DNA of 64,000 nt from Octopus vulgaris (Eukaryota), in assembly GCA_951406725.2 (NCBI GenBank), contig OX597822.1:28830001-28894000 (forward strand), written 5' to 3'. Shown in pieces: positions 15,327 to 61,029 of the stretch. The translations under genes and the position numbers were made by a program. Within the stretch, counting starts at the first letter, position 1. The number at the start of each line of letters is the position of its first letter. The notes under the pieces were generated by a model, which saw nothing but the letters and a program-made list of their open reading frames with translations, was not told where the DNA came from and made no database searches.

Positions 15327-15344
15327 TATGTGTGTATATATATA

Positions 15345-15603: not shown

Positions 15604-15766
15604 CTGTTTTCGTTCCAGCACACGATCTCAGATCAAGTCACTTGCTATGCAAGTACATCTCTGTAACTATATATATATTATATATATATATATATATGTA
15701 TATTGGTAAAAACAGTAAGATAACAAAAGAAAGAAAGAGACCTCAATATTAAGTAAATAGAGGAAA

Positions 15767-34150: not shown

Positions 34151-34574
34151 CGAGCAAAACTTGTGAAGTGGAGACAATCATCGGGGATCTTGGAAGTTCC
34201 CGGTGCTTTGTATCGCCAACAACTGTTTTAACGTCTTGCTGGGAACAGAAATGATGAGGTCCATATTAAGGAAATCGGTTTCGACTTTGTGGAACATACA
34301 AGTGATCGCTAATAGAAACCTGACCCCTTCCTTAACTATTCCAATATCTTAATTGCTCGCGAGAAATTTGGAGAGGGAGTGATTATTTTGCGTATCTGAT
34401 TATGGAATAGATGGGAGCTTAACGTGACCAGAGTTCTGATGCAGTCTGAGCTAGAATTTCTACCGTGTGAGGGTGAGGTGAGCTATTAGTTACTTGTGCG
34501 TGTTTTGTTTTTATAAATCTTTCCCTTATACTGTATGTTTGTAAGTTGGTATTTAATTATTGATGTATCCTGAT

Positions 34575-35881
34575 TGCGGTGAGCTGGCAGAACTGTTAGC
34601 ATGCTGGGCAAAATGCTTAGCGGCGTTTCGTCCGTCTTTAAGTTCTGAGTTCAATTTCCACCGAGGTCGACTTTACCTTTCATCCTTTCGAGGGCGATGA
34701 ATGAAATAAGTACCAGTTGAACATCGGGGTCGATGTAATCAACTAACCCCTCCCTCAGCAATTCTAGGCCTTGTGCCTATTGAAGAAAAAAAGGATTATT
34801 GATATACCTTTATTCACTTAGGCTTCCCCTACCCTGTGTGTGTTTTCAGTCATAACTCTTTTCCTTATGCTGTGTGTTTGTAAATATTCATTTATTTTGT
34901 GTAATTTTTAAAACCTAGACACACCTCAACATATTGCTTAATATCTTGACCCTCCCCACAAAAGCGACGAGCTGGCATAAACGTTAGCGGCATTTCGTCC
35001 GTCTGAGTTCAAATGCCACCGAGGTTGATTTTGCTTTTCATTCTTTCAGGAACGATAAAATAAGTACCAGTTGAGCACTGGGGTCGATGTAATCGACTTA
35101 CACACTCACCCGAAATTGCTAGCCCTGTGCCAAAATTTGAAACCAAAATCTTGACCCGCCCATCCTTTTTGTATAAATTTGTATATCCTTACCCATTTTT
35201 GTAAAATTTGTGACAGGTTTTTGCATGTACGAATGAACGCTTGTGGCAATAAAACTATGAAATATTCTGCAAGACTGTTTAGAGCGTCGGAAAAAATAGC
35301 GCAACGTACTTTTCCAACAATATACGCTCTGAGTTCAAATTCCACCGAAGTCAACCGTACCTTTCGTTCATGACGGTTCGATAAAATATCGTATCAATCA
35401 ATGCTATGGACTAACCCCGTCCCTAAAAATTGCTGTCCTTTCGCCTAAATTCTAAACAGCTAAAATTTTTACACATTCAGACAAAATACTTACTGGCATA
35501 TCTAGTGGTTCTACGTTTTGAAAAGAAATATCGTCTAGAATGCCTTTGCCTTTCATCCTTTCACGATCGATTTACAAGTACTGGAGTCGATGTAATCGAT
35601 TAACACCTTCTCTGAAATTGCTGGCCTTGTGCCAAAGATCTGAAATCATTGTTATTAGTATTATTTAAGCGGCTAGCTGATAGAATAGTTGGCACACCGG
35701 GCAAAATGCTTAGCGGTATTTCGTCTGCCGCCACATTTTGAGCTCAAATTTCACCGAGGTCTACTTTACCCTTCATCCTTTCGGGGTTGCTAAATGAAGT
35801 ACCAGTGAAACACTGGAGTCAATGTAATCGACTAGTTCCCTCTCCCAAAATTTGAGGCCTTGTACCTATAGTAGAAAGGAA

Positions 35882-35882
<1 letters not shown>
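34575..35882 (+). mobile_element. Cluster of about five tRNA-derived SINE copies
   Basis: GAGCTGGCAGAA...GAGTTCAA...GAGGTCGACTTT.CCTTTCATCCTTTC at about 34575, 34965, 35330, 35540 and 35670. Confidence 0.85.
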
Positions 35883-35941
<59 letters not shown>

Positions 35942-40706: not shown

Positions 40707-41414
40707 ATATATACATATATATATATGTATTATGTACATATACATATATATGTATGTATGTATGTGTATATACATATATATATATGTATATATGTCTGTA
40801 TGTCTGTATATATACATACATATATATATATATACATACATACATACATACATACATACATACATACATACATACATGTGTATATCTTTATATATCTTAA
40901 ACAAATAAGATTTCTGACGTAAGCACGAGGCCCTACATATATTTAATAAGGAAGGTGTCAATTGAATTATTGAATTAAAGATTTAACAGAACTAGTAATT
41001 TACTAGTACTTTAGTCTATTGTCCTCGGAAAAGGAAATGTGAAGGTGGCGTATGTTTTTCTATTGCGCAAAATCCAGATTTCCTCTGGGACGTTACGCTT
41101 AAGAAGATCGAGGTGTCTACAGCGTTACGCACCGTCAAATGTTTCTTATGCAGGTAGGTTCATTTACACGCTTCTTACTCCTATCTTCTCGCTTTTCTGT
41201 ACTAAACTTCACTTTCTGTCGTCTTATTACATAATCCCACCTGCGCCGAATTGGCTTTCTATCTCACTGAATGATGTGAGGCAGACTGGATAAGATCGAC
41301 TATAAACCACATTTACCTCTGAATCGTTAAACAACACAATCAGACAGCGATACGTTCGTCGAGCTGTCGTTCTCATTTATAAAATCATAACTTAAACTCG
41401 TTACCCTTTCCTAT

Positions 41415-41592
41415 ATGCGCAGAATCGGCTGTGCAGTTAAGACATTCGCTTTGAACCCATAAAGATCGTGGTCCAGTGCCGGGCAAGCATCTCCCACTGT
41501 GACTCCAGGTCAAAGATTGCCGTGTGATTGAAATTGGTAAGAGGAAACTGTGTGAAAGCACAAGATGTATACTGTATAATATATGAATATGC

Positions 41593-41673
<81 letters not shown>

Positions 41674-41850
41674 CGTACGTGCGTGTGTGATTGCTCCTCA
41701 ACGATTTCACAACTTGTGTTGATTTGTTTACATACAAATTGGCGACTCGTCAAAAAAGAACAATATAACTAGTTACACACAGAGAAAACCGTTCAAGGGT
41801 GTACGCCAGAGTGACTGAATTGCAATGATTAATGCAAGTAAATGAATTTA
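41415..41850 (+). mobile_element. Degenerate SINE with internal (GT)n, upstream of GPCR-2
   Basis: Degenerate tRNA-like head, GGAAACTGTGTGAAAGC before the (GT)n, and a tail similar to 50100-50320. Confidence 0.5.
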
Positions 41851-41954
41851 AAAACACTAATGAAATGTCTTTAAAAAAATATTACACTCACCAAATTGTA
41901 ATACACATTTGCTTAAGCAAATTCATTACTAATTACTGAGGGTAAAATATCGTC

Positions 41955-41970
41955 ATTTCTTCTATTGCAG
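41955..41970 (+). other. Putative splice acceptor of GPCR-2
   Basis: ATTTCTTCTATTGCAG|G, 218 nt before the ATG. Confidence 0.6.
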
Positions 41971-42188
41971 GTACAACTTCAAAAGCTAGTGCATATATAC
42001 ATATACAAAGTCAACATACCGTTGTTCTATGATCCGAATTTTGGTTACATTCAAACACTTAAAACTGACTTATTATGCCTTCAATGTATTGGAAGCATTT
42101 TCAATTTTGACCTATTCATCAACAAATAGATATCAAATATATCTCTTGAATTTCTTCAGTCTTGCTGCTTCAACATCTTCAGTTTCAA

Positions 42189-44126
42189 ATGGAAATCGTC
42201 TTCAATCATAACTTTTCTATTTTATTTTTTATCCTTGCATTTATGAATCACGTCGTTCTAACTTCAAACTCTAACTTAAAATGTTTCAATACTACGGATT
42301 GTGAATTTTGCTCATTTGCAAAGCAATGTCATATGTACAACAGATGCTGTTGTAATGAAGATCAACGGAAAACTGTTGAGTCCGAATATTTCGATCCATC
42401 AATATATTATAGTTGCAGCCTTGTTCAGGACAAAACATATTATATCTTTGACCGCTGTCCATCAAATCACAGTGATATAAGTCATGTGACCAGATGTGAA
42501 TATCCTAAAAACAATGATAGTCCAGACAATATTCCTGTGTTCGGTGAAACAAGTAAAAGACTCTATATGAACCGATATTGTGCTTTGTGTCACACAGAGA
42601 AATATATATTATGGGATATTGTTTATGACTGTGATAATACAGTAAATATAAATCGTGCCGATTTAATGAATATGATTGAAAATGGTAAATGTTCCAAACG
42701 CAAAGCTCCTCCGGATAATTTAAAACCTTATCTGATGCCTTGCATTTCCAGTGTTAGTAAATGCTCGCCTCAAATATTAAATGAAACATTGGAACATCAA
42801 TGTCCAACTTTAGAAAAGCCACGATGTACATCGTCTAATGATTATACCGATCGAAACATCTTATGTTGCAGTGTATCAACCAGTACATCATCGAGTCGAA
42901 AGGGATTTCCATTAACTATCATTTTTAATTATAATATCAAATATTTAACTATTAAAGAAAAAATAGACGGAACTGAAATTGAAACGAAATTGCCATTTTG
43001 TCCAAAATACACCAATTACGATAAAAACACAATGCGTTGTCGCAAGAATTTTTATCACCCCATCTTAAATTGTACAGCGACCAGATTGAAGGACTCTGAA
43101 TATCATATCACTAGTGATGGTCTTCTCTATTTAAATATTACCCAACTTTGGCTCAATCAATCAGAATTCAGTATTGATGAAGATGGTTTAAGTATCTGTG
43201 TAAAGAATGATAACGATGAAATATCAAAATATTCCGAAATTGAAACCTATATCACATTAGTGGGACTAGCAATCTCTGTCCCAGCTCTGGCAATCACTAT
43301 TATAGTCTATCTCTGTATACCTGATCTCCGTACCTTACCAGGTAAACTACTCATTAGTCTTTCATCGGCACTGTTTGTAGCTGAGCTTCTGTTTCTTATC
43401 TCATCACAAGTCACTACATCCACAGTGCTGTGTAAATCTTCAGCTGTTGTAATGCATTATGCGTTTTTAGCGACATTCTTCTGGACGAATGTCATGTCAT
43501 TTGATGCCTGGAACACTTTCTCAAGGCTTACACAACTTCGGAGTTCAGAAAATGATACCAAGAAACTTGTATTATATTCCTTATATGCTTGGATCTGTCC
43601 ACTTCTAATAGTAACAGTGTCACTGATATTTGAGTACACACCTGGAAATCGTGGATTTTCTCCAGAATATGGAATTGGTATTTGCTGGATTACAAACGTG
43701 AACAGTTTATTGTGGTTCTTAGCAATCCCTGTTATCATTATTTTATGTTTGAATATTATAGCGTACAGTATCACTATCAGAGAGTTGTATTTGGTCAGCA
43801 AACTTTCTTCAAAATATTTATCAAAACGAAACAAGAAGGTGTTCTTCATTTACATAAAATTAAGCTTCATCATGGGTTTAACATGGATGCTCGGATTCCT
43901 TTATACGTTTACGAAGATTGACGAATTTTCTCTACTATTTTGCATCTTAAACTCTTTCGTTGGTTTACTCATTTCTTTGTCATTTCTCTTAACAAAGATC
44001 GTCTGCCGCAGTTTTCAACATATGTTTATTAAAATACGAAAATATGTCGATTTCTCAAACGCCGATGTTTCGACGATTACTGAAACAATGTCGACCTACA
44101 CCGAACATGATACATCACTAAAATAA
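42189..44126 (+). CDS. Methuselah-like class B GPCR 2, 645 aa from the first ATG
   Basis: The ORF track starts at a TTG (42162); the first ATG is 42189 (MEIVFNHNFSILFFILAF, signal-like). Cys-rich ectodomain with LYMNRYCALC; 7TM as in GPCR-1. Confidence 0.92.
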   Translation: MEIVFNHNFSILFFILAFMNHVVLTSNSNLKCFNTTDCEFCSFAKQCHMYNRCCCNEDQRKTVESEYFDPSIYYSCSLVQDKTYYIFDRCPSNHSDISHVTRCEYPKNNDSPDNIPVFGETSKRLYMNRYCALCHTEKYILWDIVYDCDNTVNINRADLMNMIENGKCSKRKAPPDNLKPYLMPCISSVSKCSPQILNETLEHQCPTLEKPRCTSSNDYTDRNILCCSVSTSTSSSRKGFPLTIIFNYNIKYLTIKEKIDGTEIETKLPFCPKYTNYDKNTMRCRKNFYHPILNCTATRLKDSEYHITSDGLLYLNITQLWLNQSEFSIDEDGLSICVKNDNDEISKYSEIETYITLVGLAISVPALAITIIVYLCIPDLRTLPGKLLISLSSALFVAELLFLISSQVTTSTVLCKSSAVVMHYAFLATFFWTNVMSFDAWNTFSRLTQLRSSENDTKKLVLYSLYAWICPLLIVTVSLIFEYTPGNRGFSPEYGIGICWITNVNSLLWFLAIPVIIILCLNIIAYSITIRELYLVSKLSSKYLSKRNKKVFFIYIKLSFIMGLTWMLGFLYTFTKIDEFSLLFCILNSFVGLLISLSFLLTKIVCRSFQHMFIKIRKYVDFSNADVSTITETMSTYTEHDTSLK

Positions 44127-44299
44127 TAGAAATTTCTCCGGAAATTTTCTAGACAACAGATATTCTACCACAGTACACAACCTTTAGTAACGCTGCATTC
44201 TATAAACTACACTGTAAGGCCTGTAACATCACAACACATGCTGCATTTTGTATCAGACTACTTTACTTTTATGATAATGATATAAACGTTAAGAATTAT

Positions 44300-44305
44300 A
44301 ATAAA
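44300..44305 (+). terminator. AATAAA polyadenylation signal of GPCR-2 (conserved at 46888-46893 and 52774-52779)
   Basis: Same relative position, about 170-185 nt after the stop, in three homologous 3' UTRs. Confidence 0.6.
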
Positions 44306-44521
44306 ATGCAGATTGTGAGGGCGTCACAGATATCCTTCAACAGGCTTTCATATTAGAAACTGAAAAACAGTTGCATCAATCTCAGCTTCTCATCTACTCC
44401 AGCGGGCATTTTGTGATTATATTTATTGTCAACGAGCTTTTAACCGTAAAGAAATAATATTATCAAATTGTCGTGAGCATTTCCTTGCATCGTTTCATTA
44501 TTGAATACTATTAGTAAATAT

Positions 44522-44541
44522 CTTTATTTCTTCTTTTCCAG
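44522..44541 (+). other. Putative splice acceptor of GPCR-3 (identical one ending at 50432 for GPCR-4)
   Basis: CTTTATTTCTTCTTTTCCAG|G. Confidence 0.62.
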
Positions 44542-44715
44542 GTATTACTACGAAAACTCTATAACCCAAAACAACTTACCTTTAAGCTATAGCTCATTCT
44601 TGTTTGCTTATATTCAAAGACATAAATACATTGGAAGCATTTTCGATTTTGATCTATTCAAATTACTCCATTGTAGTAAAATTCATCAACAAATTGATAT
44701 CAGTATAAATCCTGG

Positions 44716-46704
44716 ATGTCTTCAAGATTGCTGATTCAACATTTTCAGTTCCGAATGGAAATCATCTTAAAATATTACTTTTCTACTTTATTTCTTATCA
44801 CTATATTTATGAATAATATCATTCCAACATCAAATTCTGTCCTAAATTGTTTACGTACGACGGATTGTGAATTTTGCTCTCTTGCACAACACTGTCATAT
44901 ATATAATAGATGCTGCTGTAATGAAGATCAACAGAAAACTGTTGAGTCCGAATATTTCGATCCATCAATATATTATAGTTGCAGCCTTGTTCAGAACAAA
45001 ACATATTATATCTTTGATCACTGTCCATCAAATCACAGTGATATAAGTCATGTGAACGGATGTGAATATCCTACAAACAACGATAGCCCGGACAATATGC
45101 CTGTGTTCGGTGAAACAAGTAAAAGACTCTACAGGAACCGATATTGTGCTCTGTGCCACTCGGAAAAATATATATTATGGGAGATAGTTTATGACTGCGA
45201 TAATACAGCAAATAAAAACCCTGCCAATATAATGAATATTATTGAAAATGGTAAATGTCCCAAACGGAACGCTCCACCTGATAATTTAGAACCTTATCTA
45301 GTCCCTTGCATACCCAGTGTTACTAAATGCTCGCTGCATATATTAAATAAATCATTAGGACATCACTGTCAGCTTTCTAAATATACACATAATATTACAG
45401 AGATAAAGTGTACATTGTCAATGAAATATATTAAACTCAACATCAAATGTTGCAATAATTCTTTGAGTTCTGCTAAACTACGGTCTTCGTTAACTATCAT
45501 TTTTAATTATAATGCCAAATATTTAATCATTAAAGAAGTGAAAGACGGTACTGTAATTGAAACGAAATTGCCATTCTGTCCAAAATACACCAATTACGAT
45601 AAAAACACAATGCGTTGTCGCAAGAATTTTTATCACCCCATCTTAAATTGTACAGCGACCAGATTGAAGGACTCTGAATATCATATCACTAGTGATGGTC
45701 TTCTCTATTTAAATATTACCCAACTTTGGCTCAATCAATCAGAATTCAGTATTGATGAAGATGGTTTAAGTATCTGTGTAAAGAATGATAACAATGGAAT
45801 ATCAAAATATTCCGAAATTGAGATCTATATCACATTAGTGGGACTAGCAATCTCTGTCCCAGCTCTAGCAATCACTATTATAGTCTATCTCTGTATACCT
45901 GATCTCCGTACCTTACCAGGTAAACTACTCATTAGTCTTTTATCAGCACTGTTTGTAGCTGAGCTTCTCTTTCTTATCTCATCACAAATTACTACATCTA
46001 CAGTGCTGTGTAAATCTTTAGCTGTTGTAATGCATTATGCATTTTTAGCGACTTTCTTCTGGACGAATGTCATGTCATTTGATGCCTGGAACACTTTCTC
46101 AAGGCTTACACAACTTCGGAGTTCAGAAAATGATACCAAGAAACTTGTATTATATTCCTTATATGCTTGGGTCTGTCCACTTCTAATAGTAACAGTGTCA
46201 CTGATATTCGAGTACACCCCTGGAAATCATGGACTTTCTCCAGAATATGGAATTGGTATTTGCTGGATTACAAACGTGAACAGTTTGCTTTGGTTCTTGG
46301 CAATCCCCGTTATCATTATTTTATGCATTAATATTATAGCGTACAGCTTTACTATTAGAGAGTTGTACCTGACCAGCAAATGTTCTTCAAAATATTTATC
46401 AAAACGAAACAAAAAAGTGTTCTTTATTTACGTAAAATTAAGCTTCATCATGGGTTTAACATGGATGCTCGGATTCCTTTATACGTTTACGAAGATTGAC
46501 GAATTTTCTCTACTATTTTGCATTTTAAACTCTTTTGTCGGTTTACTCATTTCTTTGTCATTTCTCTTAACAAAGATCGTCTGCCGAACTTTTCAACGTA
46601 TGTCTCTTGAAATACGAAAATATGTCGATTTCTCAAACTCTGATATTTCAATGATTCCTAAAACAATCTCGACAAATAACCTACATGAAACATCACTACA
46701 ATAA
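44716..46704 (+). CDS. Methuselah-like class B GPCR 3, 662 aa (alternative start 44755, MEIILK)
   Basis: Intact ORF paralogous to GPCR-2 and GPCR-4, with the same ectodomain Cys pattern and 7TM motifs. Confidence 0.92.
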   Translation: MSSRLLIQHFQFRMEIILKYYFSTLFLITIFMNNIIPTSNSVLNCLRTTDCEFCSLAQHCHIYNRCCCNEDQQKTVESEYFDPSIYYSCSLVQNKTYYIFDHCPSNHSDISHVNGCEYPTNNDSPDNMPVFGETSKRLYRNRYCALCHSEKYILWEIVYDCDNTANKNPANIMNIIENGKCPKRNAPPDNLEPYLVPCIPSVTKCSLHILNKSLGHHCQLSKYTHNITEIKCTLSMKYIKLNIKCCNNSLSSAKLRSSLTIIFNYNAKYLIIKEVKDGTVIETKLPFCPKYTNYDKNTMRCRKNFYHPILNCTATRLKDSEYHITSDGLLYLNITQLWLNQSEFSIDEDGLSICVKNDNNGISKYSEIEIYITLVGLAISVPALAITIIVYLCIPDLRTLPGKLLISLLSALFVAELLFLISSQITTSTVLCKSLAVVMHYAFLATFFWTNVMSFDAWNTFSRLTQLRSSENDTKKLVLYSLYAWVCPLLIVTVSLIFEYTPGNHGLSPEYGIGICWITNVNSLLWFLAIPVIIILCINIIAYSFTIRELYLTSKCSSKYLSKRNKKVFFIYVKLSFIMGLTWMLGFLYTFTKIDEFSLLFCILNSFVGLLISLSFLLTKIVCRTFQRMSLEIRKYVDFSNSDISMIPKTISTNNLHETSLQ

Positions 46705-47829
46705 TTGATATTTCTCCGGAAATATTCTAAACAACATACATTCTACCACAATATATAACCTGTAGTACCGCTGCATTCTTTAAACTATATTGTAAAAGAC
46801 TCTAACGTTGCACCACTTGCTGCATTGTATATCACACTTCTTTACGTTTATAATGAGACAATGATATGCATAAACGTTAAGATTTATAATAAAGTAAAAA
46901 CTGTGATGACGTTACTCATAGCCTTCAACGGGCTTTCATATTAGAAATTCAAACAGTGTTTCCTCTGGCTACACAATTTGACCAATCTCAGTTTCTCACC
47001 TTCTCCGGCGGTACTTTTTACGATTATATCTAGGATCAATGGTTTTTAAACCGACTTAAGTATTTTGATTTTCTCTCAAGGACTAATAAATATTTCCACA
47101 ACTGGATAATACTAAATTCCTATAACTTTTCGGATGCTTTTCTCTCACTCTCACCATACATCTCAATCGGAATAGAATTCACCAATTTCCCTAACAGATT
47201 CATTCTCAAACCGTGGTCTGTCGTCATGAAACCATTCTCTTCACATCACATGAAATACATATAGGAAGAAACAATGAGACTGGAAGTCGTCTGCATCGGC
47301 AAGACTTTTGTTATCTAGAGAAAGTGACAGAACGAGTAGAGTGAATTTGCCGTACCTAATGGAATATCCAACATTTTTGCAAGAATCTTTCTCGAGGTAA
47401 ATTTGAAAGGAAATAAATGAAGGCTGCGAAGTTGTTCCTCTATGTCTGAGAGGGTTGGTTTCCATGTCTTTGTTCCGGGCATAAGTTGTTTTAGTTGCTC
47501 TTGTATTATGTTTAACTATTTTGATTTCAAACTACATATTTACAAAACATATTTCAAGCATTCACATTAAATACTTGTTCTCTCTGAAACATTCTGTGAG
47601 CAATACATTTTCCCTTCTCTCACAGACGCTATAGAAATCGAAATTTGATACACATGGAAATGTTATTCTGTTCCCAAAGTTTCTTGTGTTGCAGATTGTA
47701 GCTTTTCAGATATGTACCCCAAGATCGTGTTACTTGTAATAAATATATAGAGGAACAGTATATATATATGACATGAATGTTCACATCACGTCTTATATTA
47801 TATAACTAGTTGTATTTATTTAGATGATA

Positions 47830-48957
47830 TCTGATATATATAAATCACAGCATATGTGTGTATAATGACTAACGCATACATTTCCACAATTCTCAACCGA
47901 TTTTCACCAAACTTTACACACACGTTGCTTATGTCACAAGGATGGTCATGCACTAAACATTTTTCCCGGAGCTTCCGCGTAAATAGACCTAAATGGACAT
48001 AGTTTTTGTATGTAGGATCTTCCATACATTTTAATCTTTTTATGAAGTGAAAGGATTTTGTCTATTTATTTCGACTGTACTCCTGCCACGTTGATTAAAT
48101 TGACTAGGAATACTGTAGCGATGAATATCCAATATCAAGCAATCTTAATCTCCATAGTTAAACTGCATTAAACTTTGGCAGGCTTACTTTTACTTATTCT
48201 GAGTTACTTGAAAGATGATGTCTCCTTCCCTCCCTTCTATTTGTTGAGACCTTTGTTTACCTACCAATGCGTTGTTTCACTTTAAGGGTGCCTATTTGCC
48301 CATCCATTATGATATTTCGACTATTGTCCGTTGTTTCAAATATGCTTTAGCATTGTCATTTTAGCCTCTTTTAAACAATTACTTATGATTCGTCCCCAAA
48401 TAATCAACCTTTAAATAAGAGTTTTGCTTACACTAGCGAAAGCTATACGTATCTTTCAGAAAAATCCGTACCAATTTAACTCTATACAGCATTCGCTGTT
48501 ATATTATGCGCATGCTATACGGGAAAACAGAATAAAGGGGCTTTTGTCAACTTATCTCTCCGAAAAAATAGCTACTTTGCTGTTGAAAAAAGTAAATTCG
48601 CAGAGGGGAAGTTTCACCGTTTTCTTTCAATTCCCTTACACCATTTATGTGGCTGTTTATGACAACAAATTTCGCTTTCGTGTAAAACAACTATATTTGG
48701 TTGTCAATATTCGTAATCTACTCCCATAACACTTCAGTAGCTCTGCTTTGCATAGCTCTCAAACTTTCATGTTCTATGATCATTAAAGTGCAACGACCTC
48801 CACAATAACCAGACTGCAATTCGATTTTCCGTTCCTAGGTTAATCGGAAACATAGATTGCCGTACTACTCATAAACATTCTCGCTAGTTCAATTATCTAA
48901 TGAAAAAAATACCACCATAGCAGCTTAAACCATCCAAGGGACGGGTGTGTTTGCTAG
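47830..48957 (+). mobile_element. Non-autonomous Helitron, 1128 bp
   Basis: A|TCTGATATATATAAA...GGGACGGGTGTGTTTGCTAG|T. The paralogous spacer shows the empty site ATGATA|TATGTT at 49899/49900 with no target-site duplication. Confidence 0.8.
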
Positions 48958-49249
48958 TATGTTATATTATTCCATTTTCGTGCCTTCTTTCAAGGCACCA
49001 CTAGTTACAATAAATGGCTTGTTATATTTTGTTTACTGGTGACATTGAAAGATGCATCACATTACCTATCTGATTATACGTGAATAGTAACATTTAATGT
49101 CCTGTTATAATAAAACTTTCTAAAGCATGACATATATCCCACTATGAGTGCTATGAGTGTGTGTGGGTAGCTGCAGGTGTCTCTGTTTGTATCTGTTCCA
49201 ACACAGTTTCATAATTGCTGTTGGTTGGTTTTCGTCCAGTAAGTGGGCC

Positions 49250-49389
49250 TGTTTTTAGCTGAGCTTCTCTTTCTTATTTCATCGCAAGTCACTACATCCA
49301 CAGTGCTGTGTAAATCTTTAGCTATTATGATGCATTATTCGTTCTTAGCTACTTTCTTCTGAATGAATGTCATGTCACTTAATGCCTGG
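49250..49389 (+). pseudogene. Collapsed GPCR paralogue (TM2-TM3 remnant with stop) fused to its 3' UTR
   Basis: FLAELLFLISSQVTTSTVLCKSLAIMMHYSFLATFF*MNVMSLNAW, followed by GGCTTTCATATTAG...CTCATCTACTCCAGCGGG, homologous to 44343-44406. Confidence 0.88.
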
Positions 49390-50606
49390 CTTTCATATTA
49401 GGAATTGAAACACAGTTCCCTCAATCTCAGTTTCTCATCTACTCCAGCGGGCCTTTTCTACATATATCTTTTGTCAACGATTTTTAAAAGGAAATAAAAG
49501 AAGGCAACGGAGATGTTCCTCTGTGTCTGAGAGGGATTCTGTGTCTTTGTTCGAGACATTAATAGTTTCAAGTGATCTTGTATTATATTTAACTACGATG
49601 TTTTCAAACTACATATTTACAAAACAAATTTCAGACGTTCGCATTAATCATTTCTTCTCTCTGAAACATTTCGTGTAGAGGCGGTGAACAATACATTTTC
49701 ATTTATTACACAAAAACTGTAGAAAACGAATTTGGTTCTCATGGAAATTTGTTCTGTGCCCTCTGTGTTTTGTGCTGTTTTCCAAATATGACACTCAAGG
49801 TTGCTTTATTTGAAATATATAGAGAAACAGTGCGTATATCACATGACTGCTCACATCACATCATATATTATATAACTGGTTATAACTACTTAAATGATAT
49901 ATGTTGTATTATTCAATTTAACTGCCTTCTTTCAATACACCACTAGATACGATAAATGGCTTGTTATATTTTGTGTACTGGTGAAATTGCACGATGCGTC
50001 ACATTACAAATCTGATTATATTACGTCAATAGTAACATTTCTTCTCTTATAAGAAAATTTTCTCAAGCACACTATGTCTCAGTATGGGTGTTTGGGTGGC
50101 TGCAGGTGCCCGTGTTTCTTTTGTCCCAACACAGTTTCACATTTGCTGTTAGTTTCTTTTCGTCCTCGCGACTTAGAGTTTCATCAGTAAGATGCCGATA
50201 GGAAAAGTACCAAATATAGAAACATTACTGTGATCAATTTGTTCCATTAAACCTTTCAGGGCCGTGTCCCAGTAGAGTTGCACTCTGATGGCTGAAACAA
50301 ATAAAAGTATTACAAAATAATAAGAGTTCAAAATGTAAAGAAATAATATTATCAAATTGTCATAAGCATTTCCTTGCATCGTTTCATTATATTGAATACT
50401 ATTAGTAAATATCTTTATTTCTTCTTTTCCAGGTATTACTACGAAAACTCTATAACCCAAAACAACTTACCTTTAAGCTATAGCTCATTCTTGTTTGCTT
50501 ATATTCAAAGACATAAATACATTGGAAGCATTTTCGATTTTGATCTATTCAAATTACTCCATTGTAGTAAAATTCATCAACAAATTGATATCAGTATAAA
50601 TCCTGG

Positions 50607-52604
50607 ATGTCTTCAAGATTGCTGATTCAACATTTTCAGTTCCGAATGGAAATCATCTTAAAATATTACTTTTCTACTTTATTTCTTATCACTATATTTA
50701 TGAATAATATCATTCCAACATCAAATTCTGTCCTAAATTGTTTACGTACGACGGATTGTGAATTTTGCTCTCTTGCACAACACTGTCATATATATAATAG
50801 ATGCTGCTGTAATGAAGATCAACAGAAAACTGTTGAGTCCGAATATTTCGATCCATCAATATATTATAGTTGCAGCCTTGTTCAGGACAAAACATATTAT
50901 ATCTTTGATCACTGTCCATCAAATCACAGTGATATAAGTCATGTGAACGGATGTGAATATCCTACAAACAACAATAGCCCGGACAATATGCCTGTGTTCG
51001 GTGAAACAAGTAAAAGACTCTACAGGAACCGATATTGTGCTCTGTGCCACTCGGAAAAATATATATTATGGGAGATAGTTTATGACTGCGATAATACAGT
51101 AAATAAAAACCCTGCCAATATAATGAATATTATTGAAAATGGTAAATGTCCCAAGCAGAACGCTCCTCCTGATAATTTAAAGCCGTATCTGGTTCCTTGC
51201 ATTCCAAGTGTTCGTAAATGCTCGCCTCTTATATTAAATGAAACATTGGAACATCACTGTCAAAATTTAGCAAGTAAGAACCTTAGAGGAAAGGCCCAAT
51301 GTACATTAGATAATATCTATACTGATCAAGGCATTATATGTTGCAATAATACTAACAACAATGATTTTGGTTTTACAAGCTTACCTTCCTTAACTATCAT
51401 TTTTAATTATAATGCCAAATATTTAATCATTAAAGAAGTGAAAGACGGTACTGTAATTGAAACGAAATTGCCATTCTGTCCAAAATATACCAATTACGAT
51501 AAAAACACAATGCGTTGTCGCAAGAATTTTTATCACCCCATCTTAAATTGTACAGCGACCAGATTGAAGGACTCTGAACATCATATCACTAGTGATGGTT
51601 TTCTCTATTTAAATATTACCCAACTTTGGCTCAATCAATCAGAATTCAGTATTGATGAAGATGGTTTAAGTATCTGTGTAAAGAATGATAACAATGGAAT
51701 ATCAAAATATTCCGAAATTGAGAGCTATATCACATTAGTAGGACTAGCAATCTCTGTCCCAGCTCTAGCAATCACTATTATAGTCTATCTCTGTATACCT
51801 GATCTCCGTACCTTACCAGGTAAATTGCTCATTAGTCTTTCATCAGCACTGTTTGTAGCTGAGCTTCTCTTTCTTATCTCATCACAAATTACTACATCTA
51901 CAGTGCTGTGTAAATCTTTAGCTGTTGTCATGCATTATGCATTTTTAGCGACTTTCTTCTGGATGAATGTCATGTCTTTTGATGCCTGGCACACTTTCTC
52001 AAGGCTTACACAATTCCGGAGATCAGAAAATGATACCAAGAAACTTGTATTATATTGCTTATATGCTTGGATCTGTCCACTTCTAATAGTTACAGTGTCA
52101 CTAATATTCGAGTACACACCTGGAAATCATGGACTTTCTCCAGAATATGGAATTGGTAATTGCTGGATTACAAATGTAAACAGTTTACTCTGGTTCATGG
52201 CAATCCCTGTTATCATTATATTATGCCTCAATATTATAGCGTATAGCATCACTATTAGAGAATTATATTTGGCCTGCAAACTTTCTTCAAAATATTTATC
52301 AAAACGAAACAAGAAGGTGTTCTTCATTTACATAAAATTAAGCTTCATCATGGGTTTAACGTGGATATTCGGATTCCTTTATACGTTTACGAAGATTGAC
52401 GAATTTTCTCTACTATTTTGCATCTTAAACTCTTTCGTCGGTTTACTCATTTCTTTGTCATTTCTCTTAACAAAGATCGTCTGCCGCAGTTTTCAACATA
52501 TGTTTCTTAAAATACGAAAATATATCGATTCCTCAAACGCTGATCTCTCGACGATTACTGAAACAATCTCGACCAATATTCAACATGAAACGTCACTAAA
52601 TTAA
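50607..52604 (+). CDS. Methuselah-like class B GPCR 4, 665 aa (alternative start 50646)
   Basis: Intact ORF; 5' flank and first approximately 185 aa are almost identical to GPCR-3. Confidence 0.92.
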   Translation: MSSRLLIQHFQFRMEIILKYYFSTLFLITIFMNNIIPTSNSVLNCLRTTDCEFCSLAQHCHIYNRCCCNEDQQKTVESEYFDPSIYYSCSLVQDKTYYIFDHCPSNHSDISHVNGCEYPTNNNSPDNMPVFGETSKRLYRNRYCALCHSEKYILWEIVYDCDNTVNKNPANIMNIIENGKCPKQNAPPDNLKPYLVPCIPSVRKCSPLILNETLEHHCQNLASKNLRGKAQCTLDNIYTDQGIICCNNTNNNDFGFTSLPSLTIIFNYNAKYLIIKEVKDGTVIETKLPFCPKYTNYDKNTMRCRKNFYHPILNCTATRLKDSEHHITSDGFLYLNITQLWLNQSEFSIDEDGLSICVKNDNNGISKYSEIESYITLVGLAISVPALAITIIVYLCIPDLRTLPGKLLISLSSALFVAELLFLISSQITTSTVLCKSLAVVMHYAFLATFFWMNVMSFDAWHTFSRLTQFRRSENDTKKLVLYCLYAWICPLLIVTVSLIFEYTPGNHGLSPEYGIGNCWITNVNSLLWFMAIPVIIILCLNIIAYSITIRELYLACKLSSKYLSKRNKKVFFIYIKLSFIMGLTWIFGFLYTFTKIDEFSLLFCILNSFVGLLISLSFLLTKIVCRSFQHMFLKIRKYIDSSNADLSTITETISTNIQHETSLN

Positions 52605-54035
52605 TTGGAATTTCTCCAGGAATACTCTAAACATCAGACATTCTATCACAGTACACAACCTATTGTAATACTAGATTCTATAAACTACTCCGTAAAAGTC
52701 TCAGACACCACTTACTGCATTGTATTTCAGAATTCTTTACGTTTATGATAATGATATAAACGTTAAGAATTATAATAAAATGCAGATTGTGATGACATTT
52801 CTGATATCCTTCAACGAGCTTTCGCATTAGAAACTGAAGCAGCATTCCTCTCACTACACAATTTCACCAATCTCAGATTGTCACCCTCTCCACCAAGCTT
52901 TTTTAGGATGTATCTATTGTCAACGATTTTTAAATCGACTTCAGTACTTTGATCTTCTCTTAGGGGTTAATAACATTTCTACAATTAGATAATGCTGAAT
53001 ATCTATAATTTTTCAAATACTTTTCATGTTCTGGATAAATACATCTTCGACCACTTTTATCATAGATCTCGTTCAGAAAAATTCATCTATGTGGCTGACA
53101 CGTACATTCTCAAGCATTGGCTTGTTGTCATGAAACCATTCTTTTCACATCACATGTAATACTTATAGCAGAATCCAGTGAGACTAAATGTCGTCTGCAT
53201 CGCCAAGAATTTTTGTTATCTAGGAAACATGACAGAACGAGTAGTGAACTTGACGTACATAATGGAATGTCCAATATTCTCGTATGAGTCCTCAAGGTAA
53301 ATTTGAACTGAAATGAAATAAAAGACAGCTGAACTGCTGGAGTCAACTGCCTCGTTGTTGTCAAACTACAATGTTTGCAAGACAAATTTCGAACATGTGT
53401 ATTGACAAAATTTTTCTTGTTTGGAAAATGAGAATGAGAAAAGTAAAATAGCCGATGCGTGATGAATATCCAACTTTTCTGTAAACATTCTGCTTAAAAT
53501 AAATTTGACAGGAGGGAAGTAAAAAAAAAACAATAGGGTTTTACATCCTCTATTTAAGAAACTGGTTTCATTTGGGAACGAACTAACTTAGAATATCTTC
53601 TGTCTTGTATTGAACCATGATTTTTCAAACTATAACTAAACTAAACCTATTTCAAACGTTCCCATTGTGCATATGTTACGTTTAGATGCATGATAAATTA
53701 CGTGATGGGAATTTGTACAATTCATGACTGCTTCGATATCATGAGCAATCATATTCCATTCGTTAATTACTACTACTATTCTAAATAATTATATGTATTA
53801 TGTCTCAATATCATGCGGCTCACTTTCGCATGACTACTTACTTTTCTTTCCTTCCAACATCAAAGAACTTTGCACCTTACTTGACGTGTTATATCACACT
53901 ACTATTTCTAATTCTTCAGCGCCTACATTGAATGCTTAAATTTCATGGCAGACTGTATTATATAAATATTATATTTTATGGAATTATACTTCATGCAATT
54001 AGTTACGCTACATTATCATTATTAATGCGTATCCT

Positions 54036-54852
54036 TAGACGACGAGCTGGAAGAAGCGTTAGCACTCCGGGTAAAATGCTTAGCGGCATTTCGTCCGACT
54101 ATGCATTCTGAGTTCAAATTCCGCAGAGATCGACTTTGTCTTTTCATCCTTTCGGGGTTGATAAAATAAGTAGCAGCTGAGTACTGGGGTCGATATAATC
54201 GACTAATCCCCTCCTCTCAAATTTCTCCTACAAATATCAGGCCCTGTGCCTATAGTAGAAGGGATTATTAATGTGTATCCTAAGGCGACGAGTTGGAAGA
54301 ATCATTAGCACTCCGAGCAAAATGCTTAGCGGCATTTCGTCCGTTTATACGTTCTGAGTTCATATTCCGCCGAGGTCGACTTTGCCTTTCGTCTTTTTGG
54401 GGCTGATAAAATAAGTGACAGTTGAGCACTGAGGTTGATATAATCGACATACCCCCTCTCCCGAACTTGTTTGCCTTGTCCAAAAATTTGAAGTCAATAT
54501 TACATGTATTGTTAAATATGTCTGCTTTTATTATTAGAGTTGTTTTATATGTTCGGTCCCATTAACTGCAAGTTTTATTACATTACATGACGAGGTTGCT
54601 TACCTTTCATGTCATGCTCATTTGTAGTTTTATGCAGGGTGTCTCAATAAACTTTTCTACCATAGACACGGGACCTGAAATTTGGAGTTAAGTAGAGCTA
54701 GTTGATTACATCGAACCCAGCAGTTAACTGGTACTTATTTATAGACTCCGTAAGCATGAAAGACAAAGTCGACCTCAACGGAATTTGAACTCGAAAAAAA
54801 TGCTTCTAAACATTTTGTCCGGCGTACTAACGATTCTGCCAGATCACCTTAA
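54036..54852. mobile_element. Three tRNA-derived SINE copies (54036-54270 +, 54282-54500 +, 54650-54852 -)
   Basis: Same head and body as the family at 6355. Confidence 0.85.
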
Positions 54853-54914: not shown

Positions 54915-56130
54915 AGCAGGCTGAATCAAAGTTTTTTTGGGTTTTTTTTTAAATCTTTGATTAATGCTTCAAACAAATTGCATACAGAAAGCGTTTATTC
55001 ATCAAAATATATCCCATCATATTCTATCGTTATCGTTGTGCTAGAAGCTCAATTCCATGCTTATACCATTTGGCTGGTTTGGAGGCAAAAAAACTCCCCG
55101 CATACGTTTTCAACCTTACCTACATTGTAAAACATCCGACTGTGCAGGAAATGGGTCATAGTTCGGAGAAGGTGGTAATCAGATGGTGCAAGATGAGGCA
55201 GCACAAGTTTCTCAAGTTTGTGCTTAGACCCATTGGCAGTGTGTGCCGAGATATTGTCATGCTGTAGGGGTGAGCGTCTTCGATTGACTAATGCCAGTAG
55301 AAGGCATTCAAAGCTTCTTATACTCGCTGCAGTTGTTGAGCATAAAAATTAATGTTCACAGCATGACTATCTGAGACAAGCTCAAAATGCAACAACCCCT
55401 TCAAAGTCCACCAGACACATAACATGACCTTCTATTCAAACCACCTTTATTTGACAACAGGTTCTGAAGCCTGGCTTGAAGGCTGCCACGTATTTCTGTT
55501 ATTAAGATTGTGAAAATAGAACCATTTTTCGTCCCCAGATACAATTCGACGCAAAAAACGGACATTTAAAGGATTCTCCAACAGTTGTTTGCAAATGTTC
55601 TCACGTCGTTGAACTTGCTCATTGGTAAGTTCATGGGGAACTTCTCCACAACTTCTCGAGCTTATGGAGTTGTCAGTTGATTGTGCCTTACGAAGGATCA
55701 GGTTCTACCAACGATGTTCGAGCTTGTGCTTGTCTGTTGGTAAACCATTTCAAGCAAGGTCACATTTTCCATATCAGAAGACTCCCTGACTTGTGTTTGT
55801 CTTTGAGGCTAGTGTCACCTTCCTTGAAATTTTATTCCCACACGTTCTTTGACAGTTCATTAATTTCTGTTGAATCTACCCTTGCACTCAGTCCCTTTCT
55901 CCACAGACAGCGTAAAATGGCTCAAATTGCAATTTTTTCACCACTCATTATCAAAGGTGTAAAATAAAGAATAAACAATTACTGTTTATATGCTATATAT
56001 TAAAAACAAGAATAAACTATTCAGCAACGATTGGATAACAAGTTGTATCAAATTAATGATGTAACATGACGATATAAGTTGGCAAAAATCAAAAGAGAAA
56101 ATCAGAAAAAAACTTTTGACTCAATCTGGT
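54915..56130 (-). mobile_element. Old mariner element
   Basis: Minus strand has IVSGDEKWF (about 55530) and HDNISAH...LAPSDYHLLRTM (about 55160-55260); degenerate TIR-like ends. Confidence 0.75.
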
Positions 56131-56851
56131 AATATAAATAAATTATAAATATTACAAATAAAGTATGTTCCATCAGTATGAGATGCCCTGAATTACGTAA
56201 TTATTTGTATTGTATAACATTTCCTTACAGGTTTTCTTACATTTCACTATTGTTAATATTACACATCTTGTTATATTTAATAACGAATTATTCTGTTTTA
56301 TTAAATATCAGTGATATGCGTTATACAATTTGTTATATTTCATGAATTACCGTTATGAATTACTTGCTATGTTGTATTATACAGCTGCCTACAATAACTT
56401 TATAGCCACGGGAATAAAATGCAACATCATTTAACTTGTGAAAACCTCATGAAAAATTAACCAGAATTAATAAAATTTTATTTCAATAACTTATAAGCTT
56501 GGTAGAGAACACTCCTGCTTTCAAGCATCCATTTGATTAAGTTGTTAATGACAGACTTATCTGCACTTACCCACCCTTCAGTCAACACTATTTCTTTCAG
56601 TTCTGTCATTGATGTAATATTTGATGGTCTTGCTCACAACCTTCTATCGAAAGGTTTCTATATATGTTTTATTGGATTGAGATCAGAACTTGAACCACAT
56701 ATTTCAATGATTTGATTCCATCAATTCTTTACCGATTCTCGTATGATATAGGGCTCCGTCTTCTTGAAAGCGTAATCTCCTTACCAATTCCTACATTGGA
56801 ACACTAAGGTAATAAACCATTTTTAAGTATTTTACAGTCACCTCATTTTCT

Positions 56852-56887
<36 letters not shown>

Positions 56888-57757
56888 AATGTTAGAAAAT
56901 GGATAAAACATTTAATAAAAATTTATCTGCAAAAATCAAACATAGTCCCTTACACCTGTTTCAATTAAGCTTAATAGATTAAATAATAATTAATAAAATC
57001 ATTATATTAGGCAAAATCTCTTCAGTGGGATAGAAAAAAATATACCATTAAGTTTTTAATTGTTGTATTTTAGAATATGTTGCAGTTAGATTCTGTTGTA
57101 TTTTAGAATAATATTCGGCAGACTGAGTATTATTTTATGGCTAATATTGGTATATGCCCGGATTAGGAGGTTATAGGTTGTTTTAGTGGCTAATGGATAT
57201 GTGAATATAATTAGGGTAATAATGGGTAAAAGAATAGAGGTTGAATAGTAAATTACAGTGAAGACGAGTATCATATGAATAATGAGATAAAATAAATACT
57301 CAGGTAAGTTGTTTATAAATCTGAGGGAAACTTCTATAAAAATAACACATAAACATATATTAACACCGGTCAAACAGCATTCGTCATTTAATTCAGTGCA
57401 TATACATAGATAAATAGATAAGTAAATATAATAATATGATTGTATATCATTCATTATTTAGTTATTAATAATTTGTAAATATGGTTATTAATTAAATGTA
57501 GTTATGTGAATAATAATGGGATTTATGTATGTGTTACAAAGTTTGACTGTTCAAAATATTGTTTATAATAAAGTCTAATATGGTACATAGAGCAATAATG
57601 CTTATTCCAATACTTATTTATTTTTTAGAAAGCTGCCCATGGGGGTATATAATAGGTTAGTTGCTATGTGTGATTAATGCAAAGATACTAGGTATATTTT
57701 TAGTGAGGGAGTAATATGATAATATTAAAAATAATTAAATTAAATAGTATACAAGAA

Positions 57758-57765
<8 letters not shown>

Positions 57766-57851
<86 letters not shown>

Positions 57852-57871
57852 TAATAATAATAATAATAATG

Positions 57872-57902
<31 letters not shown>

Positions 57903-57914
57903 TAATAATAATGA
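57766..57914. repeat. (AAT)n microsatellite
   Basis: Directly visible. Confidence 0.95.
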
Positions 57915-57984
57915 TAGGGAGTATAACTCCAAACTTACAGGGAAAATTCAATTTAGTATTAAATCAAATTTCACAATATAAATA

Positions 57985-58215
57985 TATAATATATAAATTA
58001 GAGAAAATAACCACTATTATGCAATTCAAACAATGATAGACATAAACAAACCAAATCATAAATAAAAAATAAAGTATATTTTTATAAAACATATAACTAG
58101 ATCACAAAAAGTATACTTTTTGTGGTCTAGTTATGTTTTATAAAAATATTTTTTATTTATGAATTGGTTTATGTCTATCATTGTTTGAATTGCATAATAG
58201 TGGGTTTTTTCTCTA

Positions 58216-58230
<15 letters not shown>
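57985..58230. repeat. Long palindrome centred on AAAAAGTATACTTTTT (about 58114)
   Basis: ATAAATTAGAGAAAA..CCACTATTATGCAATTCAAACAATGATAGACATAAAC / GTTTATGTCTATCATTGTTTGAATTGCATAATAGTGG...TTTTCTCTAATTTAT. Confidence 0.88.
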
Positions 58231-58279
<49 letters not shown>

Positions 58280-58594
58280 GATGGAAAATTGAATATATAC
58301 AGATTATATATAAATATAATATGAATGCATATCATGTGTTAATTTGCAGTTAAAGATTTATCAGTATAGTTAATGAAATGGTTATGTGGAAAGTGAAAGA
58401 TACAAATATTATCAAGTGTAGCTATTCAATGCTGTAATAGTGGATAACTGATATAAAAGTTAGCAAATGTATATGGTAAGATATTGGTAGAAAAATATTT
58501 ATTGTGTGTACAATATGCTAAACAGTAGAATTAATTATTATAATATTATGTTAAGACTTGTGTGTAATAGGATTATAATAGAATTAGATATTAA

Positions 58595-59124
58595 TCATAA
58601 TTAAATCTCAGAATGAGATTGAAACAGTAATCGCTCGATAATGTAAAGTATAGAAGCCATCTTATTATGGCTAACCACATTGGGGAGGGGGTGTTACTGT
58701 TGCTTTATAGCCCCAAGAGATCGTCGTCTCTAGCTGGCTTTAGACACAATATCAGTGCCCTTGGAGTATTTGCAAAGGGAGGCCATCCCTTCCTCGGAAG
58801 CCTGAGTGATACGCTCGAACTAGTTTCGGGATTTTTGTCCCTTGTCAACGGGCGGTAACCACCAGGTCGCGATGAAAGTGAAGGCTGCTTTGCAAATATT
58901 TAATTTTTTCTAGTGGCGTCTGCCACTGATGTCGAAAAACTAACAGTAAGCATAATTAAATCTCAGAATGAGATTGAAACAGTAATCGCTCGATAATGTA
59001 AAGTATAGAAGCCATCTTATCATGGCTAACCACATTGGGGAGTGGGTGTTACTGTAGCTTTATAGCCCCAAGAGATCGTCGTCTCTAGCTGGCTTTAGAC
59101 ACAATATCAGTGCCCTTGGAGTAT
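58595..59124. repeat. About 175-bp direct repeat (58596-58769 and 58952-59123)
   Basis: CATAATTAAATCTCAGAATGAGATTGAAAC...GTGCCCTTGGAGTAT occurs twice, about 356 nt apart. Confidence 0.88.
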
Positions 59125-59870
59125 ATTAATGTTGGTAGTTTATTAGTTAGGTAAAAGTTAGGGGGTTGTTATTAATATTGGAGTAAGTGATTATAGGGGT
59201 ATGTACAAGCAATCTAATGGGAGAGATAAAAAAAATTGATTCTAGAGAGGGGGATGATAAAATGATTATATAATTAAATAATGAATTAAATAAATGAATG
59301 CTTAAATTTGAAAGATATTTATATTTCCAAGTGAATATATGGAACGCTTTTCTCATTTAAAAGAATATAATAGGGTATTCCTGGATGAAAGAATAAATAG
59401 TACTTTAGTTATATAAATATAAACTATTTTTAGTGTTGACTTTGTAAAACAGTGCAGAGATAATTGTATCACATTTAAGGTAAGTTACAATAATATTAGT
59501 GGAGCTAGGGGTTAGCGGGGGTGTACAAATATTATAGTGAGAAAGACAACAAATCTATATATTATTTGAATTTGGAAAATGCATATTGTCCCATGTGAAC
59601 ACAGGGTGTACTTTTCTCGTCTCCTAGGTTAAGTAGGGTATTCCTAGACAAAAGAATATGGAATGCCTCCCTTATACAAATAAGATATTTTTTATTATTG
59701 ACCTTGTAAGCTGATGCGGAAACTTTTATATTCCATTTAAGACCAACTTCAATATTGTTATCTTTTAATTGCCAAATAAATTCACTTAAACCAGTAGAAT
59801 TAGATTTCTATCTATTCCTAAAAGTGTGTAAGTGGTTCATGACGCGTTTCTCTATTGTATTTTCTTCCGA

Positions 59871-59903
<33 letters not shown>

Positions 59904-60970: not shown

Positions 60971-61029
60971 AATTCTTTACATTAATATTACAGGCGGGTT
61001 GATCACTGTGATTCAGAGAAGTAGAAACA

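Follow-up and report, generated by a model that had tools for sequence, protein, structure and literature searches.

How can a receptor gene be transcribed when nearly all of the DNA upstream of it has been lost? This question is raised by a tandem array of receptor genes from Octopus vulgaris, located in a window of 64,000 nt (assembly GCA_951406725.2, OX597822.1:28,830,001-28,894,000, forward strand; all coordinates are window positions). Six-frame translation of the window identified five long intronless open reading frames (ORFs) for G protein-coupled receptors (GPCRs), four 7tm_2 ORFs on the + strand (GPCR-1 to GPCR-4) and one ORF on the - strand (GPCR-5). The gene in question is GPCR-3. 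Because nearly all of its own upstream DNA was lost, it likely borrows a leader. That GPCR-3 is made as an alternative last exon from the non-coding leader of its upstream neighbour, and thus by leader sharing, has in our judgement about an even chance of being right. The elements on which this reading is based are the following.

41971-44305, + strand: GPCR-2 cassette, with a 218-nt 5' stretch, the ORF at 42189-44126 (645 aa) and AATAAA at 44300-44305.
44542-46893, + strand: GPCR-3 cassette, with a 174-nt ATG-free 5' stretch, the ORF at 44716-46704 and AATAAA at 46888-46893.
50335-52779, + strand: GPCR-4, with the acceptor at 50432, the ORF at 50607-52604 and AATAAA at 52774-52779.
41691-41970, + strand: 3' part of the putative 5' untranslated region (UTR) intron of GPCR-2 with its acceptor, homologous to 50121-50432 before GPCR-4.
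44446-44541, + strand: remaining own upstream DNA of GPCR-3, 96 nt, ending in the acceptor that ranks 2 of 3,300.
44440-44460, + strand: deletion junction from the GPCR-2 3' flank to the GPCR-3 upstream DNA, with a ~10-nt AAAG(G)AAATAA microhomology.

Splice sites were scored with a generic splice matrix, and ranks refer to all 3,300 + strand AG and 3,725 GT sites. As proposed in the initial annotation, a polypyrimidine-AG was found upstream of every + strand coding sequence (CDS), ending at 8289, 41970, 44541 and 50432, and 174-370 nt before the first in-frame ATG. These four acceptors ranked 5, 3, 2 and 1, respectively. None of 50 control windows of 500 nt reached their scores, and the top minus-strand AG (n=3,779) remained below all of them with a score of 7.38. 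The acceptors of GPCR-2, GPCR-3 and GPCR-4 are homologous, which leaves about two independent events, each with a chance near 0.03. A branch-point motif was seen for one of the four in a scan that was uninformative. An AATAAA, likewise noted before, follows GPCR-2, GPCR-3 and GPCR-4 at 44300, 46888 and 52774, 170-184 nt past the stop codon, with a rough chance of 0.016 for its presence and retention. No AATAAA was found within 1 kb downstream of GPCR-1, which is therefore excluded from the tandem acceptor-ORF-poly(A) cassettes formed by the other three. That the whole ORF is contained in a single exon behind the acceptor is indicated by sequence motif only. Taken together, strong acceptors, ORF and AATAAA indicate that each receptor is most likely a last exon which requires an upstream non-coding exon. 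A last coding exon behind a non-coding upstream exon is a common layout of GPCR genes. In the search for a coding first exon, no homologue N-terminus matched outside the ORFs among the matches listed.

The homology between 41691-41970 and 50121-50432 was not matched in score by any of 200 shuffles, and the final 25 nt are more alike (21/25 identical) than the sequence further upstream (134/201). Complete identity of the GPCR-3 and GPCR-4 acceptors was considered as a mark of selection and rejected, since gene conversion accounts for it. The acceptors at 41970, 44541 and 50432 all read CAG/GTA (the slash marks the splice boundary), while that of GPCR-1 does not, and splicing could recreate a weak donor there in a manner resembling recursive splicing. 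The rebuilt donors are weak (ranks 214-329 of 3,725); by their AG/GT a leader could ratchet on to the next cassette.

How much upstream DNA GPCR-3 has retained was determined by self-alignment. The initial annotation had described the homology between the upstream regions of GPCR-3 and GPCR-4 as abutting the 3' UTR of GPCR-2, and this was borne out: the homology begins at 44446 and 50335, respectively, and that of the GPCR-2 3' flank stops at 44443. Only 96 nt are kept, and the loss of upstream DNA at GPCR-3, from which the initial annotation had concluded that a promoter and first exon have no room there, is thus seen in the sequence. From the GPCR-2 AATAAA to the GPCR-3 acceptor the distance is 236 nt, and all candidate leaders described below (block, E and D') are missing there. 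The AAAG(G)AAATAA microhomology likely caused the deletion at 44443/44446. GPCR-3 and GPCR-4 show 0 differences over 44499-44994 (496 nt) between flanks which are 78% alike, and this identity likely reflects gene conversion between the two genes. The 53 nt beside the junction differ between GPCR-3 and GPCR-4 by 2 substitutions and 1 indel; these very noisy data hint at a deletion that preceded the most recent conversion.

Motifs, homologies, deletions and ORF conservation are properties of the DNA itself, and from them we infer every step of splicing and expression that follows. A leader transcript would be spliced to the GPCR-2 acceptor at 41970 and end at the AATAAA at 44300, or it would skip the GPCR-2 cassette, be spliced to the acceptor at 44541 and end at 46888. 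Competition between 3' end cleavage and splicing would set the GPCR-2/GPCR-3 split, with one receptor per mRNA. The general proposal of the initial annotation, shared leaders joined to whole-ORF last exons, was sustained in part: it agrees with the cassette layout, the upstream loss of GPCR-3 and the annotation of two other sub-clusters, but the leader exons it named are unproven and GPCR-4 need not share. An extended version would place a few promoters with non-coding leaders across the cluster, each supplying several successive whole-receptor last exons, with the receptor chosen by regulated splicing versus polyadenylation in sucker, skin and nerve cord cells, as a counterpart of clustered protocadherins that varies at the 3' side; it appears improbable. 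Opportunistic leader sharing is favoured over such a receptor-choice system.

Where could the leader come from? Four segments of the window have to be considered.

41001-41153, + strand: candidate promoter/leader of GPCR-2, CpG-rich, ending in CAG/GTAGGT.
47240-47396, + strand: the block, which may be the leader exon of the unit that follows, with 3 ATGs within.
53145-53296, + strand: second block copy, with no + strand receptor cassette after it within the window.
49869-50105, + strand: candidate for a rival, private leader of GPCR-4, with TATATAA at 49869, D' and the weak donor CAG/GTGCCC at 50105 (counterpart at 49176).

The donor at 41153, pointed out before, ranked 7 of 3,725 GT sites and doubles as a moderate acceptor (rank 43 of 3,300). 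By its CpG count 41001-41500 took rank 8 of 255 windows. The block had been presented as a conserved leader exon that is deleted in the spacer before GPCR-4. Its homology to 53145-53296, the AG/GTAAAT end of both copies and its absence at 49488 were all found, but neither its conservation nor its donors are special. The copies are identical at 124 of 152 positions versus 403 of 516 in the preceding flank (Fisher p=0.43); the counts for segments E and D are 320/404 and 222/263, respectively. The two donors rank 40 and 55 of 3,725 GT, and the window contains 0.6-0.9 donors of this strength per kb. Block conservation as proof of function was rejected (82% versus 78% in the flank, and a second copy without downstream cassette). 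No significant homology was detected between the block and 41001-41153, with 95 of 500 shuffles as good, or between the block and the upstream DNA of GPCR-2 or GPCR-1; the best local matches before GPCR-2 are collinear (~40964-41063) but without the donor letters. The block starts ~350 nt past the GPCR-3 AATAAA, and in Octopus bimaculoides the model 289m starts 659 nt past the end of the model of its upstream neighbour (PMC6408891, supplement), which may be taken as a weak parallel in favour of the block as leader. An ATG-GAA start was observed before the donor in both block copies (47359-47396 in the first), in the same phase and with a 3-nt indel between the copies. With the block spliced to 50433, one ATG would open an out-of-frame upstream ORF of 76 codons (47359-47396 with 50433-50625), which overlaps the first in-frame ATG of GPCR-4.

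The initial annotation had also seen GPCR-4 as lacking a leader of its own. This could not be maintained: 944 nt of own upstream DNA are present, with TATATAA at 49869 and the weak donor at 50105 kept in both D copies. An intact block lies 3.0 kb upstream of GPCR-4 with no intact receptor cassette in between, so that a leader at the block or at 50105 would be private to GPCR-4, and either the block of the relic copy described below (47396) or its own proximal segment (50105) could serve it. Judged by this layout, among the receptors of the window only GPCR-3 would need a shared leader. The actual leader of GPCR-2, GPCR-3 and GPCR-4 may lie far upstream of the candidates at 41153 and the block, because long family models span 9-24 kb. 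Strong + strand donor motifs at 4486, 34477 and 38368, upstream of GPCR-1 or GPCR-2, represent possible distal leaders; several lie in transposon-like sequence.

Self-alignment resolved a repeated unit of 3' flank, segment F, block, E, D, G, acceptor and ORF. Between GPCR-3 and GPCR-4 the order was found to be block, E, a 1.1-kb insertion, D, relic fragment, 3' flank, E', D', G and GPCR-4, with the following parts.

47402-47834, + strand: segment E (copy E' at 49483-49897), with a TATATAA at 47799 and two acceptor-like sites (47625, 47694).
47835-48957, + strand: high-copy non-coding insertion with Helitron-like ends, its CTAG 3' end after a hairpin, inserted between A and T.
48958-49237, + strand: segment D (copy D' at 49898-50165), copies 84% identical.
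49246-49488, + strand: relic receptor copy, a transmembrane fragment of 141 nt that contains an in-frame stop and lacks an acceptor, followed by a 3' flank of the GPCR-2 type.
49483-49495, + strand: junction without segment F and block, from self-alignment.

The ends of the insertion resemble those of Helitrons. In the DNA run its summed depth was 768-17,198 per bin versus ~40, and collinearity of E-D with E'-D' returns once it is removed. It sits just after the TATATAA at 47799 and before segment D, and could have disabled a promoter of the relic copy. The 3' flanks of the relic and of GPCR-2 have the same left breakpoint and a common 18-19-nt gap. We infer that the block-less spacer predated the GPCR-3/GPCR-4 duplication, and that E-D-G was lost afterwards, in front of GPCR-3 only, by a second deletion via the 10-nt microhomology. 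Overall, the layout likely arose via tandem duplication, unequal crossing-over, gene conversion and microhomology deletion.

Does GPCR-3 look like a living gene? Its orthologue in Octopus sinensis is 97.9% identical. In the variable ectodomain and the C-tail, which differ by 33-36% from GPCR-4, the identity to GPCR-3 is 99% and 100%, respectively. Lineage-specific synonymous/non-synonymous changes after residue 260 amount to 14/13 for GPCR-3, compared to 17/14 for GPCR-2 and 17/13 for GPCR-4. By these comparisons the GPCR-3 ORF looks to be under constraint. At 9 of the 10 positions which differ from the O. sinensis orthologue, GPCR-3 carries the GPCR-4 residue. The O. sinensis model begins at the third Met, without hydrophobic leader peptide.

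Annotation of paralogues outside the window was consulted for leader sharing elsewhere in the family. P-numbers are the protein labels of our homologue set; spans were taken from supplement 2 of PMC6408891, with 22 models covered. There, Ocbimv22021290m (P0050) extends over 24,144 nt on the minus strand (18935-43078) and encloses a same-strand paralogue, Ocbimv22021291m (28498-30513), which is represented by its CDS only (PMC6408891). Such nesting applies to one of the four models among these 22 that span at least 9 kb (PMC6408891). In the O. bimaculoides RefSeq annotation P0005 is named 'isoform X1' (XP_052826744-746) and P0050 'LOC106872517 isoform X2', with the adjacent accession XP_052826747. 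P0005 is the downstream neighbour of P0050; the two proteins share 80% identity, their N- and C-termini differ, and their profiles over 12 tissues correlate with 0.99. In O. sinensis the RefSeq entries are consecutive as well, with X1 (P0045, XP_036362739), X2 (P0010, -740 to -742) and 'LOC115216264 isoform X3' (-743). Here, X1 and X2 share 69% identity, and their orthologues are the adjacent same-strand O. bimaculoides genes 321m and 322m. An X1 partner of P0019 ('isoform X2') was looked for and not found. The NCBI pipeline merges models with a common splice site. The X1/X2 pairs are probably isoforms of one locus, and because of this merging the RefSeq entries, together with the nested model, suggest that in two other sub-clusters of the family a non-coding exon is joined to more than one complete receptor.

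Several observations weigh against leader sharing at GPCR-3. Over all 628 residues, 10 substitutions and a 3-residue gap separate it from its orthologue, compared to 8 of 664 for GPCR-1 and 6 of 538 for GPCR-5. A neutral model for GPCR-3 was rejected at omega 0.3 (p=0.002) and not at omega 0.45 (p=0.11). Here we relied on the all-residue figures, as a 550-residue constraint test had dropped converted patches after viewing. The constraint on GPCR-3 may predate the deletion. No GPCR-3 orthologue was found in the O. bimaculoides set. The tight layout is not conserved in that species, where the orthologues of GPCR-2 and GPCR-4 are direct neighbours with a spacer of 2,794 nt, versus 682 nt from GPCR-2 to GPCR-3 in the window. 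The annotation evidence concerns other paralogues, with same-locus status deduced from accession order, and each merger occurs in one species only, the orthologues of the other species having no isoform label. The supplement gives spans and not exons, so that the side of the P0050 ORF is presumed. A location of the shared exon at the 5' end is likewise presumed. Of the 22 models covered, 17 are shorter than 2.2 kb, including the orthologues of GPCR-1, GPCR-2 and GPCR-4, and carry no leader information (PMC6408891). Moreover, reads mis-mapped between paralogues yield false chimeric models (PMC7055050).

Finally, contigs from 4 sequencing runs (1 DNA, 3 presumed RNA) were aligned over 41700-54000, downstream of the donor at 41153. 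They delivered no junction of a window gene: 0 of the 15 joints listed touch 41971, 44542, 47396 or 50433, and the RNA contigs are too short and shallow to decide. Window-specific contigs of the presumed RNA runs have 164-550 nt at a depth of 2-5 and also cover spacer and post-poly(A) DNA; they may be DNA or nascent RNA. One 164-nt contig runs unspliced across the acceptor at 50432, with only 28 nt upstream, which is under the 31-nt bridging rule. Because the one DNA run holds both distinct 3' flanks, each at ~40-46x, GPCR-3 and GPCR-4 are separate loci. Its cover is none at ~44298-44987 and little at 50331-50741, a gap that proves nothing with ~76% of the run read.

Four other explanations were weighed. 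Gene birth and death would provide GPCR-2 and GPCR-4 with private leaders and leave GPCR-3 recently promoterless and silent or nearly so, its ORF kept by youth and conversion. Decay is ongoing in the cluster, as seen from the relic copy, the orphan block and the high-copy insertion, and the undiverged 496 nt, the GPCR-4 residues in GPCR-3, the orthologue not found in the O. bimaculoides set and the truncated O. sinensis model would all fit. We nevertheless regard it as doubtful, as the unconverted parts of GPCR-3 are 99-100% identical in O. sinensis, cross-gene models are known for other family members and the very noisy 53 nt hint at a deletion before the latest conversion. GPCR-3 expression might also be independent of a shared leader and begin at a new start in the 3' region or coding exon of GPCR-2, or result from unspliced read-through past the GPCR-2 poly(A) signal. 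Weak donors are present at 44213 and 44314 in the GPCR-2 3' region (scores 1.7 and 1.4), and an RNA from an unspliced proximal start would be translated, with 174 nt past the acceptor free of ATG before the in-frame one. Two weak tests speak against a new start: no TATA- or initiator-like match was found in 44127-44541, and there is no CpG enrichment in 44251-44750 (rank 189 of 255). In animals, translation of the second ORF of a read-through RNA is poor, which speaks against read-through, and overall we consider this explanation rather unlikely.

An artefact from the assembly or polishing of near-identical paralogues could lie behind the close join of GPCR-2 to GPCR-3 or the 5' identity between GPCR-3 and GPCR-4; an argument for it would be the 496 nt without difference between flanks only 78% alike. 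This is very unlikely, given both distinct 3' flanks at ~40-46x in one DNA run, the differences beside the junction, and a coherent history made up of the junction microhomology and of the left breakpoint and 18-19-nt gap in common with the relic flank. A poly(A) signal shortly before an acceptor is the layout of nematode operons, and with 236 nt between the two, no good donor nearby and an unpaired acceptor at 44541, a GPCR-2/GPCR-3 operon resolved by spliced-leader trans-splicing was considered. It appears extremely unlikely: cis-splicing accounts for the layout, no literature on spliced-leader trans-splicing in molluscs or cephalopods was found, and the part of PMC12460157 consulted lists nematodes, tunicates, rotifers, flatworms, ctenophores and chaetognaths, not molluscs.

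The receptors themselves are, by homology, octopus group-4 Methuselah-like receptor genes. The two ORFs outside the cassette array are given here.

8270-10654, + strand: GPCR-1, with acceptor AG at 8288-8289, an ATG-rich 370-nt 5' stretch and the ORF at 8660-10654 (664 aa).
62383-63999, - strand: GPCR-5, convergent, its 5' end beyond the window.

All five ORFs contain a secretin-family 7TM domain (PF00002, E 6.5e-33 to 2.6e-22), and Pfam detected no GPS/GAIN domain or Methuselah ectodomain in any of the five proteins at E up to 0.05, which separates them from adhesion GPCRs and insect Methuselah proper. Nearest homologues are Octopus Methuselah-like receptors. GPCR-1, GPCR-2, GPCR-4 and GPCR-5 have O. 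bimaculoides orthologues with 86-90% identity, Ocbimv22034332m (GPCR-1), Ocbimv22034333m (GPCR-2), Ocbimv22034334m (GPCR-4) and Ocbimv22034335m, in the same order and orientation on Scaffold69694 (PMC6408891). These four belong to an octopus-specific expansion of Methuselah-like GPCRs, group 4 of Ritschard et al. 2019, and three of them carry CDD cd15039 in its supplement (PMC6408891). The orthologue models of GPCR-1, GPCR-2 and GPCR-4 have CDS length, and among 12 tissues, compared by bulk proportions, expression was reported in sucker and skin only (PMC6408891). GPCR-3 and the relic copy are not in the group-4 list of that source. In a quick tree GPCR-3 clusters with GPCR-2 and GPCR-4 (Shimodaira-Hasegawa-like approximate likelihood ratio test 100%).

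A Cys-rich N-terminal motif at 8760-8850, which resembles a somatomedin-B domain, is present in GPCR-1 and altered in its equivalents in GPCR-2, GPCR-3 and GPCR-4. PF28443 is found on homologues of the window receptors and was not reported for the window proteins by the Pfam version used. A short ectodomain stretch (45244-45521 / 51135-51421) is strongly divergent between the paralogues (56-64%) within homogenised flanking parts; it is likely a ligand-specificity region and is the best site for paralogue-specific probes, whereas GPCR-3 and GPCR-4 do not differ in the 450 nt that directly follow their acceptors. Public protein models of the cluster are often chimeric (among P0003, P0029, P0030, P0039 and P0040): P0003 fuses GPCR-2 with part of GPCR-3, and P0040 joins the GPCR-1 and GPCR-2 orthologues via a retroelement-like piece also found at 22468-22707. 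Elsewhere in the window we observed a family of repeats resembling short interspersed nuclear elements with many copies (6399-6944, 26848-27706, 34556-35886, 54018-54848, 60496-60972), a mariner-like transposase remnant at 10990-11517 (judged by eye from the translation), and a very AT-rich region at 55970-59900 (24-30% GC) with local duplications and inverted segments at ~58040-58170 and 58580-59120.

Is leader sharing of this kind known? In the adenovirus major late unit one non-coding leader is joined to alternative acceptors, each before a whole ORF, with several poly(A) sites. It provides the closest mechanistic picture, but is viral, temporally regulated and driven by one proven promoter, whereas leader and regulation in octopus are putative. 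In clustered protocadherins and UGT1A variable 5' exons are joined to shared coding 3' exons. The same holds for Drosophila Gr39a (PMC2204066). The window would resemble these loci and Gr28b, Gr23a, Or46a and Or69a (PMC2204066) in the alternative use of tandem-duplicated large exons in a receptor cluster. In contrast to protocadherins, UGT1A and Gr39a, every octopus ORF runs to a stop codon of its own and three are followed by an individual AATAAA; sharing would be confined to non-coding 5' sequence. Mammalian olfactory receptor loci are, like the window, tandem single-coding-exon GPCRs, theirs with spliced 5' UTRs and common upstream ORFs (PMC7055050). Sharing of 5' UTR exons was reported at 7 of 874 human and 7 of 1,483 mouse loci, and OR51E2 uses the 5' exon of the neighbouring pseudogene OR51C1P in some transcripts, with junctions supported by RNA or expressed sequence tags (PMC7055050). 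The use of a dead neighbour's exon parallels GPCR-4 and its possible use of the relic's block. Compared to OR51E2/OR51C1P, the octopus case is known from sequence alone, and GPCR-3 appears to be without own upstream DNA. No description of a shared-leader arrangement in octopus was found in literature mostly outside subscription papers; in the main text of PMC6408891, as far as covered, 'nested', 'UTR' and 'splic' have 0 occurrences and leader sharing is not discussed.

Sharing of 5' UTRs as such is already known; an obligate borrower and repeated leader sharing across a cephalopod receptor cluster would be new. If true, a new receptor copy could do without a promoter: behind an existing leader, it would need no more than an acceptor, an ORF and a poly(A) signal. 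This would help to explain the tandem expansion of the family and the common tissue profiles of neighbours, and gene counts and single-cell assignments for the cluster would be mis-drawn. If the choice were cell-specific, it would represent a novel way of diversifying the receptors of cephalopod arms.

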